A DNA stretch of 47,091 nucleotides. It comes from Escherichia coli (GTDB lineage: Bacteria > Pseudomonadota > Gammaproteobacteria > Enterobacterales > Enterobacteriaceae). A model generated the notes under the pieces. The model searched no databases, was not told where the DNA came from, and worked only from the letters and a program-made list of their open reading frames with translations. The DNA is taken from assembly GCF_003334255.1 (NCBI RefSeq), contig NZ_QOWU01000042.1. One strand, given 5' to 3'. Shown in pieces: positions 1 to 21,855 of the stretch. The position numbers and the translations under genes were made by a program. The first letter of the stretch is position 1. The number at the start of each line of letters is the position of its first letter.

Positions 1-70
1 GCCTGATTGCTGTTGTATGATGATGAAGCGTAAATCGCTGTATAAGTCTTTTGTTTGAGTGGAGTCAGTC

Positions 71-508
71 ATGTCAATACCTTCAAATCTTGATGTTTTT
101 AATGAAACAGTTGGTAAAACTTTTGCGTTTCTTTATGAAACTTTTCCCCGCAAAGTAACTATTGATATTTGTGCCTTAACCGGTGTTTCAGAGCTGACTT
201 TTGAAGAAGACCGATCCTCCAGGAGGCAACTAGTTGAAGCTCTTGAGCTTCGCCGTGACTCCATCGCATGGCTTGTTGATGCTGGTTATGTATCCGCTAA
301 ATCTTCTCCTCCGCATTACTTTTCTGATGCGGTTCTCACGGCCAAAGGTCTTGAATTACTTAAGCTTGATCCAGAGTCACTTAAACAATCATTTGGCGAC
401 AAGCTTGTTGATGCAGCCAAGAGTGGCTCAATGGACGCGATAAAAAGCACCGCATCATCCGCTCTTACTACTGGGTTATCCTTTGCTTTCAAAAGTCTTC
501 TTGGTTGA
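71..508 (+). CDS. hypothetical protein, prophage-associated, unknown function (about 145 aa)
   Basis: ORF track 59..508; a GGAG motif 7 nt upstream favours the ATG at 71. Convergent with the Cox-like gene. No family recognised. Confidence 0.4.
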   Translation: MSIPSNLDVFNETVGKTFAFLYETFPRKVTIDICALTGVSELTFEEDRSSRRQLVEALELRRDSIAWLVDAGYVSAKSSPPHYFSDAVLTAKGLELLKLDPESLKQSFGDKLVDAAKSGSMDAIKSTASSALTTGLSFAFKSLLG

Positions 509-550
509 TTGTTGCGCCCCCGCATAACACCAACGATTAGATTATTTACG

Positions 551-576
551 GCGAAATCTCCTGTTGTGGATTTCGC
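551..576. terminator. hairpin between convergent genes (gcgaaatc / gatttcgc stem, 10-nt loop)
   Basis: Inverted repeat read in sequence, lying between the stop of the 71..508 ORF and the stop of the Cox-like ORF. Confidence 0.35.
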
Positions 577-589
577 TGTGTGTTTGATA

Positions 590-1015
590 TTAAGCTGCTT
601 TTTTACTGATACGTTTATTCCGTGAACCAGCTGCTGGCTTAAATAAAAAAAGTCGGTTTTCCCATTCGTGCCATTCTTGCGGTGCGTTTTCAGTGAGTCG
701 ATCGCAGGCTTCATCCCATGCTTTCCGGTTGATGTAAAGTTCGGCGTTTCCGCCAGGCTTGAGAGGGTCCGCCATGTACACAGCGGGTAATTTCCCTGCT
801 TTTGCCATGCTCACGATGGCGTCAACGGTCTTGCCGATATACATCGCAAACCCTTCTTTTGACAGGAGATGAGAAGGGTTTTGTGAAAGCCTGATTTCTT
901 GGCGTTCAGGGGCTTTGCGCCCGGTCTTTTGGTGTGCGGTTTCTGGCGCATCTGTCAACTGATCGCACTGTGTTTCGGCAGGCGATTCAGGCGCGTTTTG
1001 AGTGACTTCTTGCAT
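590..1015 (-). CDS. P2 Cox-like excisionase/regulator with N-terminal extension
   Basis: C-terminal half (GFAMYIGKTVDAIVSMAKAGKLPAVYMADP...AW) resembles P2 Cox (EFAKLIGKSTGAVRRMIDKGKLPVIDMTDP...AW) as recalled. Start chosen at the ATG at 1013..1015, preceded by GGAGG; the ORF track extends to 1096. Confidence 0.55.
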   Translation of the reverse strand: MQEVTQNAPESPAETQCDQLTDAPETAHQKTGRKAPERQEIRLSQNPSHLLSKEGFAMYIGKTVDAIVSMAKAGKLPAVYMADPLKPGGNAELYINRKAWDEACDRLTENAPQEWHEWENRLFLFKPAAGSRNKRISKKAA

Positions 1016-1122
1016 CTGGTATCCTCCGTTATTGGCCCCTTTTTCGAATAGGGACCATGTAGAACCAATTGCGACTATTCTTGTGTTGCTATACACAAAA
1101 ATTATTGGAGATTAGAAAAATT

Positions 1123-1395
1123 ATGTCAATACCGCAAAATGAGAAATTAAAACTTATCAGAGAGTCCGAACGGATGAAAATGAAGGAACTATCTGATTTA
1201 ATTGGAATTAATTACTATACATATCATGGCTATGAAAGTGGGAAATCTAAGATGCCTCTTGATTTTGGGATCCTTCTTTTGCGGCACGCTCGTTTCCGTA
1301 AATACCGTGACTGGTTTTTGTTCGATGAGGTCGAACCAAAGGCCGGGCAGGTGGTACCGGCTCTCGCACACATTGGGCAAAGCGAAGCGGAATAG
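1123..1395 (+). CDS. P2 C-family immunity repressor paralogue (90 aa), second copy
   Basis: XRE-type helix-turn-helix N-terminus (EKLKLIRESERMKMKELSDLIG...YESGKS) and a C-terminal 33 aa identical to the downstream C repressor. Ends at the TAG at 1393..1395, lacking the last 9 residues of the full-length copy. Confidence 0.55.
   Translation: MSIPQNEKLKLIRESERMKMKELSDLIGINYYTYHGYESGKSKMPLDFGILLLRHARFRKYRDWFLFDEVEPKAGQVVPALAHIGQSEAE
1294..1393. repeat. 100-bp perfect direct repeat, copy 1 (3' end of C-type repressor gene)
   Basis: Identical to 1678..1777 by direct comparison; offset 384 bp. Confidence 0.9.
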
Positions 1396-1506
1396 TTCAT
1401 CTGATACCCTCCGTTATTGGTGCTATTTCTATTAGCACTAGTTAGAGCCGCCTAGATTGTCTATAGGTGTGTTTATTGATGCATAAACTAAGAGAGTTAA
1501 CTTACT

Positions 1507-1806
1507 ATGTCAACTAACGTAGGTGAAAAAATTAGAATCATGCGTAAGTCTGAAATGCTTACACAAGAAAAAATGGCTGAAATTACAGGGCTCACGGTAG
1601 CGGCCCTGCGTCAATATGAACAGGGGAGAAATGAGCCAAATCTTGAATCCACAAAAAAGCTGCTCAAGTCTCCCGTCTTCCGTAAATACCGTGACTGGTT
1701 TTTGTTCGATGAGGTCGAACCAAAGGCCGGGCAGGTGGTACCGGCTCTCGCACACATTGGGCAAAGCGAAGCGGAATCATCCCACTCCGGCAAGAAGACT
1801 GGTTAA
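1507..1806 (+). CDS. P2 C-type immunity repressor (99 aa)
   Basis: 99-aa ORF; sequence (MSTNVGEKIRIMRKSEMLTQ...YEQGRNEP...VPALAHIGQSEAESSHSGKKTG) closely parallels P2 repressor C as recalled (MSNTISEKIVLMRKSEYLSR...YESGRSTP...APALAHFGQNETTSPHSGQKTG). Lies immediately upstream of int. Confidence 0.8.
   Translation: MSTNVGEKIRIMRKSEMLTQEKMAEITGLTVAALRQYEQGRNEPNLESTKKLLKSPVFRKYRDWFLFDEVEPKAGQVVPALAHIGQSEAESSHSGKKTG
1678..1777. repeat. 100-bp perfect direct repeat, copy 2
   Basis: Identical to 1294..1393. Confidence 0.9.
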
Positions 1807-1872
1807 CGGTCCATCTGGCTTTTATTTCTCAAAATTGTGATCAAGATGATGTTTTCATTGGGGGGCTTCCTT

Positions 1873-2868
1873 ATGTCGATTAAGAAGCTCGCTGATGGCA
1901 AATACTGTGTGGACGTGCGGCCTGCTGGATCTGAAGGAAGAAGATTTCGGCGGCGATTTCCTACCCGTGGTGAAGCGGCGATGTATGAACGCCATGTTCT
2001 GACGCATTATCACGATAAGGACTGGGTCGAAAAACCTATTGAACGTAAAGCGTTAAGCGATCTTCTGGAACTGTGGTGGGTGTACCACGGTAAGAATCAT
2101 CGTTATGGCGCGATGAATCGGGTCAGAATTGAAGCGGTTCTTCGTGATATGCAAGAGCTTGGTATTAACAGAAGTGACCACTTAACCCGAAAAAATATTA
2201 TCAGATATCGCCTTGAATTAATGAATCGCGGAATTAAGCAGTCAACGGTAAATCGTTATTGTGCAATGATGAGCGGTTTCTTTGAAAAGCTGATTGATGT
2301 TGAAGAGTTTGTGGGTGATAACCCATTTCACGAGATACGCAAGCTAACAATTAATCAGCCGGAAATGGCTTATCTTGCACATGATGATATTCCCAGGCTA
2401 ACCGCACTTTTATCTGGCGATAATCTTAAGGCTGTATTGTTAAGCCTGGCTACAGGCGGACGCTGGGGTGAAGTTGCCAATATTAAAGGTGAACACATAA
2501 TTGGTGGGAAGGTTATTTTCATGGAGACAAAGAATGGATCGCGGCGGGTTATTCCTATAGCTAAAGATCTTGAATCTCTGATTAAAGTCAAAGCGACGGG
2601 AAGATTAATGAACCCCAGTTATGCGATAGTCAGAAGTGCAATAAGGACTGTGCGGCCTGATTTACCAGTCGGTCAGTCTGTGCATGTTTTACGGCACACA
2701 TTCGCAACTCATTTCATGATAAATGGAGGGAACATTATTACCCTTCAGCGTATTTTAGGGCACAGCACAATTCAGCAGACAATGACCTATGCGCACTTTG
2801 CACCTGATTATCTCCAGGACGCGGTAAGGTTCAATCCGGTTGCGGAGTTGTCCAGATTTTGCCCATAA
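1873..2868 (+). CDS. int: P2-like tyrosine integrase
   Basis: N-terminus MSIKKLADGKYCVDVRP and C-terminus HVLRHTFATHFMINGGNIITLQRILGHSTIQQTMTYAHFAPDYLQDA parallel P2 Int as recalled, including the catalytic R, H-x-x-R and Y. The ATG at 1873 is preferred over the ORF-track start at 1837. Confidence 0.85.
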   Translation: MSIKKLADGKYCVDVRPAGSEGRRFRRRFPTRGEAAMYERHVLTHYHDKDWVEKPIERKALSDLLELWWVYHGKNHRYGAMNRVRIEAVLRDMQELGINRSDHLTRKNIIRYRLELMNRGIKQSTVNRYCAMMSGFFEKLIDVEEFVGDNPFHEIRKLTINQPEMAYLAHDDIPRLTALLSGDNLKAVLLSLATGGRWGEVANIKGEHIIGGKVIFMETKNGSRRVIPIAKDLESLIKVKATGRLMNPSYAIVRSAIRTVRPDLPVGQSVHVLRHTFATHFMINGGNIITLQRILGHSTIQQTMTYAHFAPDYLQDAVRFNPVAELSRFCP

Positions 2869-2958
2869 ACGGGGACTAAATGGCACGATTTTGAACCACT
2901 TTGAACTTGTAACTATTTGATATATCAAGGGGTAGTGCGGTACACGCTACCCCCTTAT

Positions 2959-2982
2959 GCCACCTTCGGGTGGCGTTGTTTT
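2959..2982 (+). terminator. intrinsic terminator downstream of int (gccacc-ttcg-ggtggc followed by a T-rich run)
   Basis: 6-bp GC stem with a ttcg loop followed by gttgtttt, read in sequence. Confidence 0.5.
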
Positions 2983-3325
2983 ATGCGATGTATCTCGCGA
3001 TTTTTTTTTGTAACTTTTCCATCTTTTGCTTTTCTCTCCGAGCCGCTTTCCATATCTGCAATCGCATAAAAAACTCTGCTGGCGTTCACAAATGTGCAGG
3101 GGTAAAACGGGGGCACGCTTTGAACGGTGAGTATGAGTGAGGTCGGCTAACTTCCAGCAAGTGGCTATGAACAGCAAAATGGTGGTCGGGTTTGCTTGTT
3201 CTTACCGTTCAAGCCTTGCAACCGCTGAGAATAATGATGGTGGAATAGAGAGTTTATTTATCGCGGGCATAAAAAAACCCTTACTAACCGAAGCCCGGCG
3301 TTCAGGGTTATTGCGCTAGAAGAAC

Positions 3326-3856
3326 TTATTTATTCTTTGCGCGCTCGAAGGAAGCAACGATTTCAGCTTTAGCGGCTTCTGCGTTTTCCCAACCTTCAAC
3401 TTTCACCCACTTGCCTTTTTCGAGGTCTTTGTAGTGCTCGAAGAAGTGAGCGATCTGCGCTTTCAGCAGCTCTGGCAGATCGTTAACGTCTTTAATGTGA
3501 TCGTATTCTTTGCTCAGCTTTGTGTGCGGAACAGCAATCAGTTTCGCATCTTCACCGGCTTCGTCGGTCATTTTCAGAACGCCAACCGGACGGCAACGGA
3601 TCACAGAACCCGGCTGCAGCGGGTACGGAGTCGGGACCAGTACGTCAACCGGGTCACCGTCCAGAGACAGGGTGTGGTTGATGTAACCGTAGTTGCACGG
3701 ATAGAACATCGCGGTGGACATGAAGCGGTCAACGAACAGTGCGCCGCTCTCTTTGTCGATTTCGTATTTGATCGGATCTGCGTTAGCCGGGATCTCAATA
3801 ACAACGTAGATGTCTTCCGGCAGATCTTTACCCGCAGGGACGTTGAGTAAGCTCAT
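3326..3856 (-). CDS. ppa: inorganic pyrophosphatase
   Basis: 176-aa ORF; translation matches E. coli Ppa as recalled ([34 protein letters not shown]...). Confidence 0.95.
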
Positions 3857-5129: not shown

Positions 5130-5235
5130 TATGCCTGATGCCGATTCGTAGGCCGGATAAGGCGCTCGCGCCGCATCCGGCGGTGGTGCGCTGAAGCCTG
5201 ATGCGACGCTTACCGCGTCTTATCATGCCTACTGG
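5130..5235. repeat. REP/BIME palindromic units
   Basis: gcctgatgcgacgc... and ...ggccggataaggcg...gccgcatccggc motifs typical of E. coli REP elements. Confidence 0.7.
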
Positions 5236-11369: not shown

Positions 11370-11500
11370 TTAGCCTGATATAGTGTGCGTAGGCCGGATA
11401 AGGCGTTCACGCCGCATCCGGCATTTGAGCATAGTGCCTGATGCGACGCTTGATGCGTCTTATCAGGCCTACAGGTGCACCGCATCCGGCAAACCATACT
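11370..11500. repeat. REP/BIME cluster
   Basis: Several ggccggataaggcg / gcctgatgcgacgc palindromic units. Confidence 0.7.
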
Positions 11501-21568: not shown

Positions 21569-21661
21569 GTTGCCAGCAGGTATTATATCGCCATAAATGC
21601 TACGAATATTATTGGATTCTCCTTATTATTTGCGGCGCTTTTTTCACTTACCGGAGGTTAT

Positions 21662-21715
21662 ATGGAACCTGATCCCACGCCTCTCCCTCGACGGAGATTA
21701 AAACTTTTTCGGTAA
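21662..21715 (+). CDS. mgtL: mgtA leader peptide (17 aa, proline-rich) within the Mg-sensing leader
   Basis: Encodes [17 protein letters not shown], about 140 nt upstream of mgtA. Confidence 0.8.
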
Positions 21716-21855
21716 GCCCGTCTTTTCACGGCGTTACCGGATGCGTAAGGCCGTGACGTTTTAACGTCCCTGCTCAGCTTTATTACCTTCAGGTAAGGCT
21801 TCGCCACGCCTGAAGACATTTCTGTACTGTTTCAGACAGTGCGGAGGGACTCCTT

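Follow-up and report, generated by a model that had tools for sequence, protein, structure and literature searches.

Two immunity cassettes in series in the lysogeny region of a P2-family prophage of Escherichia coli

Gene content of the prophage end

The DNA analysed here is a window of 47,091 nucleotides (nt) from Escherichia coli (contig NZ_QOWU01000042.1 of RefSeq assembly GCF_003334255.1). Judged by its sequence, the part from position 1 to 2975 is the right end of a prophage of the P2 family (Peduoviridae), nearest to but distinct from the P88/Xuanwuvirus group. A prophage end of this kind is itself routine. What is unexpected is its lysogeny region, in which immunity cassettes are stacked between the genes cox and int. 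The genes that define this region are as follows.

590–1015, minus strand: cox, Cox-family DNA-binding protein of 141 amino acids (aa), matched by phrog_1831, phrog_272, 4LHF and PF10743
1123–1395, plus strand: C(A), type A P2-type immunity repressor, 90 aa, matched by 2XCJ/2L49
1507–1806, plus strand: C(B), type B P2-type immunity repressor, 99 aa and full length, matched by 2XCJ/2L49
1873–2868, plus strand: int, P2/HP1-type tyrosine integrase, 331 aa, matched by 5C6K, 1AIH and phrog_1

The Cox protein matched the profile phrog_1831 at 2.8e-50 as well as the Cox-like family phrog_272, PF10743 was found on the identical protein, and the comparison with the structure of P2 Cox (4LHF) gave an E-value of 1.2e-5. 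RefSeq names the product 'Cox family DNA-binding protein'. The gene is opposite in strand to C(A) and lies 107 nt away from it; by analogy with P2, Cox would be the repressor of the promoter Pc of the C genes and the excision directionality factor. Both repressor genes, which encode helix-turn-helix (HTH) proteins, were assigned to the transcriptional regulators by PHROG (phrog_147). Both match the C protein of P2 (2XCJ/2L49), C(A) over residues 5–89 (E-value 1.9e-19) and C(B) end to end over residues 1–99 (1.6e-26). C(B) is 92% identical to the C protein of phage P88, and the identical protein occurs on 819 contigs. The integrase matched 5C6K ('Integrase'), a chain which we take to be the P2 integrase, at 1.3e-74 and the HP1 integrase 1AIH at 4.4e-40, in addition to phrog_1; the identical protein is present on at least 1000 contigs.

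With int downstream of C on the shared strand, the gene order and the strands are those of the annotated int-C/cox region of P2, and every open reading frame (ORF) in 1–2975 is intact. A preliminary description, made from the letters alone, had recognized a Cox-like gene, C-type repressors and a P2-type integrase arranged as in P2. The annotated order and strands as well as the structure matches bear this out, and the similarity of the integrase to the P2 family, the absence of which had been put forward as a possible refutation, is clear from the two E-values given above. The same description had rightly used the plural for the repressors and had overlooked that they belong to a tandem module. 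In an Rfam scan of 1–3330, no known RNA family was found.

Two complete cassettes and their junction

As read from the sequence, two complete heteroimmune cassettes follow one another in the lysogeny region from cox to int, and each has a predicted early promoter (Pe), direct repeats and a C gene. The parts of this module are listed below.

1016–1395: cassette A, consisting of the switch and C(A), with early promoter, direct repeats and C gene
1421–1806: cassette B, consisting of the switch and C(B), with early promoter, direct repeats and C gene
1294–1393 and 1678–1777, plus strand: perfect direct repeat of 100 nt (100% identity, spacing 384 nt) in the conserved 3′ part of C
1393–1420: inter-cassette junction, made up of a TAG stop, TT, and a relic of the cox start and ribosome-binding region, CATCTGATACCCTCCGTTATTGG (1398–1420)

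A unit of 384 nt is thus present twice, and its two copies differ in the middle, namely in the switch and in the N-terminal two-thirds of C, so that each C protein has an HTH part of its own and a common C-terminal third. The start and ribosome-binding region of cox is likewise repeated, as 23 nt at 1013–1035 and 1398–1420 with 91% identity. The single-A prophage of strain KY202 matches cassette A at 100% identity (window 1000–1393), and cassette B matches single-B prophages. The junction between them reads GCG GAA TAG TT, followed by CAT CTGATACCCTCC; the sequence spanning it is GCGGAATAGTTCATCTGATACCC. Because the junction supplies the TAG stop, the upstream repressor C(A) ends at residue 90, 9 residues early, and its full-length form of 99 aa exists in single-cassette prophages.

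The tandem might be suspected to be an assembly artefact from a strain with two heteroimmune prophages that share their flanks, and arrays of this kind were indeed seen in no other source than short-read draft assemblies and one metagenomic viral contig. However, the junction carries sequence that is absent from both parents (TAGTT, and CTGATACCC in place of CTGGTATCC), it is unchanged in assemblies from NCBI, ENA, Logan and IMG/VR that were made by different assemblers, and the repeat of 100 nt is below the typical read length. An artefact is therefore very improbable.

The junction would have arisen once, probably by a tandem duplication at the microhomology CATC, which is present at codons 91–92 of C as well as at the cox start, together with an insertion of 4 nt that created the TAG stop. 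Site-specific recombination by Int and Cox was considered as another origin and rejected, since the junction has no similarity to the core of the attachment site. As a side observation, an ORF of 56 aa (1230–1400, minus strand) starts from the ATG and ribosome-binding site of the cox relic and crosses the conserved 3′ part of C(A) in antisense orientation. It probably came about as a chance fusion, but it would be translated from any Pe(B) transcript.

Occurrence and combinations in other assemblies

The arrangement recurs. The exact truncated A protein of 90 aa is present on 192 contigs and a one-residue variant of it on 31. A truncated B-type protein of 90 aa was found on 9 contigs, and truncated proteins of a further type, D, which are 88 aa long, on 240, 53, 20, 8, 4 and 4 contigs. 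A homology search with C(B) for additional truncated types returned mostly start-codon variants. In hundreds of draft assemblies the types are combined in at least seven compositions (A-B, B-A, D-A, D-B, D-A-B, D-B-A and A-B-x). The arrays always lie between the same cox and int and always at the ytfP site described below, both in hosts with chpSB and in hosts without it, and on several variants of the early region. In approximately 35 loci, the junction TAGT[C/T]CATCTGATACCC is identical at every internal boundary, the true cox start TCTTGCATCTGGTATCC is found at the first cassette in every case, and every array cassette other than the search query itself is an intact ORF. Since all internal boundaries share the junction, these data suggest that it goes back to a single ancestor and that cassettes were later exchanged by homologous recombination within the conserved boundary.

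Single cassettes in the same context are known from complete genomes. Among 5426 complete E. coli genomes, four with the same cox and int carry unit B only and one (KY202) carries unit A only. In deposited phages the single state is the rule, with exactly one C gene in 132 of the 132 phage records that have a P2-type C, whereas the window has two and its relatives have up to three. No description of tandem C genes in P2-like phages was found in a literature search, which was not exhaustive, so that an earlier description is possible.

Predicted promoters and operators of the switch regions

The two switch regions contain the following predicted signals.

1016–1122: switch A, with the predicted leftward promoter Pe(A), −35 TTGACA at 1129–1124 and −10 AATAAT at 1106–1101
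1421–1506: switch B, with the predicted promoter Pe(B), conserved −35 TTGACA on the C(B) start at 1513–1508 and −10 TAGTTT at 1490–1485

In a promoter scan, Pe(A) (TTGACA-17-AATAAT) scored 11/12 as a match to the consensus. Both C starts of the window carry TGTCAA, the reverse complement of TTGACA, and the predicted −35 element thus overlaps the start codon of C. The same arrangement is annotated in P2, where the −35 element of Pe lies on the C start codon, the −10 element is found 22 nt upstream, and two direct repeats of 8 bp (O1 and O2) flank it at a distance of 22 bp. Candidate operators with comparable spacing are present in all three cassette types. Cassette A has the direct repeat AAAAATTAT at 1097–1105 and 1116–1124, with a spacing of 19 bp. 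In cassette D, two copies of CATATGTRG lie on either side of a TAGATT −10 element, 21 bp apart, and cassette B has a weaker pair, TAAACTAA (1484–1491) and TCAACTAA (1510–1517), 26 bp apart. These spacings refer to repeat matches, and the operators are predicted. Switch A is identical in inner array copies and in the single-A prophage (KY202, 100%).

No terminator-like site was detected between 1016 and 1506 on either strand. For this reason, a transcript from the first Pc can cross all C genes into int, and transcripts from any Pe can reach cox.

Proposed stacked immunity and its alternatives

We consider it somewhat better than an even bet that the arrays serve to stack several immunities in one phage, that is, that the junction arose once, that the types A, B and D were shuffled, and that each repressor shuts off its own Pe. 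Homologous crossover within the conserved boundary of about 125 nt would have swapped the types and changed their order. Both repressors would be made, by read-through from the first Pc and possibly from a Pc of their own as well, and each would silence its own Pe, which would render the lysogen immune to relatives of the A type and of the B type. As all Pe point at cox without a terminator in between, lysogeny would need every repressor. An incoming stacked phage would accordingly be fully repressed only where the cell supplies all repressors, and on entering a cell with one repressor it would still express cox and the early genes.

The early stop of C(A) fits into this picture. An engineered P2 C protein lacking its last 9 residues was reported to be fully active, with repression equal to that of the wild type, and the last 14 residues are disordered (PMC2995052). 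By analogy, C(A) cut at residue 90 would correspond to the very truncation that was shown to be functional in P2 C.

Several points weigh against stacked immunity. Helix 5 is identical in types A, B and D, as is the C-terminal third of the repressor, so that mixed dimers could form and interfere, a concern which Massad et al. raised for heteroimmune C proteins. Regarding the switches, the promoters and operators are predictions made from matches to consensus sequences and from repeats. The −10 element of Pe(B) is poor (TAGTTT), and switch B of the arrays is a distinct allele, which is set apart from that of single-B prophages by a 1-nt deletion (ATTTAG to ATTAG) and by three or four substitutions. 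In most array copies of switch B, GATGTATAAA is changed to GATGCATAAA, a T-to-C exchange in a TATAAA-like motif (1421–1506 compared with 21036–21122 of L001). Such changes could leave the inner promoters weakened or dead. Concerning the distribution, the 5426 complete genomes, long-read ones included, contained single-cassette relatives only and neither A-B and D-B arrays nor the junction. An exact scan with the junction sequence GGAATAGTYCATCTGATAYCCTCC found one IMG/VR contig and no copy in JGI metagenome contigs or GTDB species-representative genomes; nothing in these scans pointed to an occurrence of the array beyond E. coli isolates. Surveillance sequencing is the source of many of the contigs, so that the counts are inflated by clonal sampling, and the divergence within cassettes is too low to test for purifying selection.

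Part of this evidence also speaks for the main rival explanation, according to which tandem cassettes are a neutral scar. They would result from one illegitimate duplication and later homologous shuffling among co-resident relatives, only the cassette proximal to cox would work, and the others would hitch-hike until they are deleted. The perfect repeat of 100 nt and the near-zero divergence within types indicate that the arrays may be young, the changes shared by array copies of switch B as opposed to single-B phages and the lack of arrays among complete genomes would suit inert passengers, and the contig counts may stem from few sampled clones. Against a scar stand the number of compositions (at least seven), their presence in hosts with and without chpSB and on several backbones, and the lack of any disrupted cassette in about 35 loci. 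Moreover, perfect direct repeats of 100 nt should recombine away unless they are selected or very recent, the inner copies of switch A equal the functional switch of single-A prophages, and the truncation spares exactly the part of C that is sufficient in P2. Taken together, we regard a neutral scar as unlikely, though as the explanation that competes most seriously with stacked immunity.

A broader view, which we put forward tentatively and to which we give a chance well short of even, is that the arrays are an arms-race device among close temperate phages that compete for one attachment site, with the boundary acting as a recombination handle. Stacking would make a lysogen immune to each constituent immunity type. 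At the same time, serial Pe promoters, each answering to a different repressor, would let a stacked phage grow on any lysogen that lacks one of these repressors. The boundary of about 125 nt would let cassettes be gained, lost and re-ordered, and the whole would amount to a repressor-cassette array with a logic like that of other cassette systems.

Leftward extent of the prophage

The window starts inside the prophage, and the genes further to the left are read from relatives only. Over 11 kb including the host flank, the ENA contig L005 shares 99.96% identity with the window (100% in the flank), and it extends 8.9 kb further to the left through early genes and the replication endonuclease gene gpA. 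The phage end of L009 and L027 is 100% identical to the window, and L027 continues into genes for SSB, portal, large terminase, GPO scaffold, P2-type capsid, small terminase, gpL, X and lysozyme. Strain S792 (H1) is 100% identical to window positions 1–1035 and has a similar early region with gpA as well as a full tail module. Closely related single-cassette prophages in complete genomes carry tail genes and the second attachment site, and the complete genomes H1 and H3 are among the relatives with genes of the gpA, head, tail and lysis set. A look-up with lysozyme for the left end of an array-bearing contig returned other genomes only. The statement of the preliminary description that the prophage body extends leftward thus agrees with L005, L027 and the relatives H1 and H3, in which gpA, head, lysis and tail genes are present, the copy of the window itself being unseen.

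It is nevertheless conceivable that the element is an int-C-cox remnant from which the structural genes on the left have been lost. The left part of the prophage lies outside the window, the draft contig L014 ends 34 nt to the left of the window start, and both L005 and the IMG/VR contig end about 28.6 kb into the prophage. The extension of L005 through early genes and gpA with the same host flank, the replication, head and lysis genes of L027 behind an identical right end, and the intact ORFs in 1–2975 make a remnant quite improbable.

Comparison of the two sides of the boundary between phage and host also bears on the recent history of the element. In L009, the phage end agrees with that of the window at 2372 of 2372 positions, but the host DNA next to it shows differences at 191 of 5758 (96.7% identity). 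From this we infer that an array-bearing phage has moved between distant hosts recently.

On the far side of cox, the window carries one further gene.

71–508, plus strand: accessory ORF of 145 aa in the stretch that separates cox from the early operon, opposite in strand, with phrog_2266 as its sole match

No match of this ORF was found in Pfam or PADLOC, and phrog_2266 is uninformative. The ORF is also found in H1, L005 and L027. The slot beyond cox is variable, and other variants carry unrelated ORFs of 177/181 aa and 76/99 aa (L006, 8166–9050; L010, 7420–8235), for which Pfam, PADLOC and PHROG searches gave no family match. The slot ORFs resemble morons and are possible exclusion or defence genes.

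Attachment site and host flank

The right boundary of the prophage was defined by comparing the window with strain SK1144 (L024), in which the site is empty, and with the distal end of a related prophage in strain 154 (L023). Two features result from this comparison.

2959–2975: attachment core GCCACCTTCGGGTGGCG, 17 bp, shared by attL, attR and the empty site
2869–2958: phage-side arm of attR, phage-specific and not present in the empty site, identity with which begins at 2959

The core occurs once in the empty site (SK1144), 12 nt past the ytfP stop, and at both ends of the prophage. On sequence grounds it is the stem-loop of the intrinsic terminator of ytfP; positions 2957–2976 were scored as terminator-like, and the T-run after the core is host DNA. 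In agreement with this, the match to phage P88 ends at 2974, and the P88 record starts at the same core. The gene ppa lies at 3326–3856 on the minus strand, and its stop (3326) is 350 nt from the core and 457 nt from the stop of int. In the preliminary description, the prophage was said to end about 450 bp from the ppa stop, with an end coordinate of 2982 that falls within 7 nt of the true boundary. The target of integration is not ppa, as the empty site shows it to be the ytfP terminator. The comparison with genomes lacking the insertion, which it had proposed, is what yielded the core from attL, attR and the empty site attB. Position 3109/3110, at which several matches stop, was also considered as the boundary between phage and host, but is the boundary of the chpSB indel, since the empty site puts the core at 2959–2975.

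Further observations concern the two arms. A perfect GC-rich hairpin, GGGGTAGTGCGGTACACGCTACCCC, is located at 2926–2950 in the phage arm just to the left of the core and is a possible int terminator or protein-binding element. On the attL side in strain 154 (L023, 8811–11180), the cargo beside ytfP consists of two genes of the Hok/Gef family and a gene for a BRCT-domain protein. At this attL, the hairpin of the ytfP terminator is retained and its T-run is replaced by the phage sequence GCGAAAATTG; because of this replacement, the termination of ytfP transcription may be altered in lysogens.

Between ytfP and ppa, the window contains no intact chpS or chpB ORF, as had been noted before. A decayed relic is the only trace of the pair.

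3119–3243, plus strand: relic of the 5′ third of chpB in host sequence outside the prophage, 72% nucleotide identity

The relic comprises 125 nt, corresponds to codons ~7–49 of chpB and contains a stop codon and a frameshift, and chpS is wholly absent. The absence of the pair is unrelated to the prophage. The region 3000–3330 is matched at 80% or more in one piece in 2322 of the 5426 complete genomes (43%), the best of these matches are 100% identical, and carriers of the chpSB-less allele include empty sites without a prophage. Genomes with chpSB match 3000–3109 and from about 3238 onward only, and in chpSB-positive strains a related prophage adjoins chpS. Given its frequency and its presence at empty sites, the missing chpSB is a common host polymorphism independent of the prophage, and the loss of the pair has the appearance of an old deletion with decay, not of a mere absence.

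The Rfam matches of the window lie in its host part and are ordinary host features, namely four naRNA4 (REP-type) elements, the mgtA magnesium riboswitch, Ysr276 and one tRNA (5151–5229, 11392–11469, 38301–38472, 21647–21762, 39306–39500 and 44588–44669). At the first REP site, the interval between ytfQ and ytfR is longer by about 170 bases in some relatives.

Significance

So far, immunity of the P2 type has been understood as a matter of a single repressor with a single operator set in each phage, in which new specificities come about through replacement. If specificities accumulate and shuffle in one genome, superinfection immunity and the competition of prophages for a shared site need to be remodelled, and asymmetric exclusion between stacked and single-cassette phages would be predicted. 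A backbone that occurs with A, B, A-B, B-A and D-A-B offers a natural set for studies of repressor specificity, heterodimer avoidance and the transcriptional interference of serial face-to-face promoters. For genome annotation, it would be wrong to dismiss two or three neighbouring HTH genes in the interval from cox to int as paralogous noise.

Comparison with known systems

Bacteriophage P2 resembles the prophage of the window in gene order and strands, in the homology of C over its full length and of Cox and Int, in the predicted position of the −35 element of Pe on the C start codon with candidate operators as direct repeats at Pe, and in a core for integration that is intergenic and not in a tRNA gene. 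It differs in having a single switch-plus-C unit, compared with two here and three elsewhere, in a Cox protein of 91 aa instead of 141 aa, and in its attachment site, which is the ytfP terminator here; moreover, the inner C protein is cut at residue 90 in the array.

For the int-C region, the closest deposited phage is P88 (Xuanwuvirus, Peduoviridae), with 76% nucleotide identity over window positions 1398–2974, corresponding to 76% over 51% of 1–3120. P88 shares the conserved motif at the cox start with the prophage of the window, whereas it has a single C gene and a cox gene that is too divergent for megablast. The backbone of L027 reaches about 72% identity over 29–31% of 12 kb to P88, Chuche and 520873, so that membership of Xuanwuvirus is not established. 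The nearest deposited phages (P88, Chuche and 520873, in or near Xuanwuvirus) match at 72–76% over a minority of the sequence, and by this comparison the element is part of a Peduoviridae lineage without a close isolated representative among the deposited phages compared.

Several immunity determinants in one lysogen are known from arrays of CTX-phi and RS1 with different rstR alleles and from P22, which has immC plus immI. These are tandem arrays of whole elements or two mechanistically distinct regions, unlike the repeated switch-plus-repressor unit found here. What mainly distinguishes closely related heteroimmune phages of the P2 group is the N-terminal part of C together with the operator spacer (PMC1904268, PMC3448106), and the cassettes A, B and D differ likewise. 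In those relatives (P2, W-phi and P2 Hy dis; classes I–X), however, each genome has one class that is swapped by replacement, whereas in the prophage described here the classes accumulate side by side.

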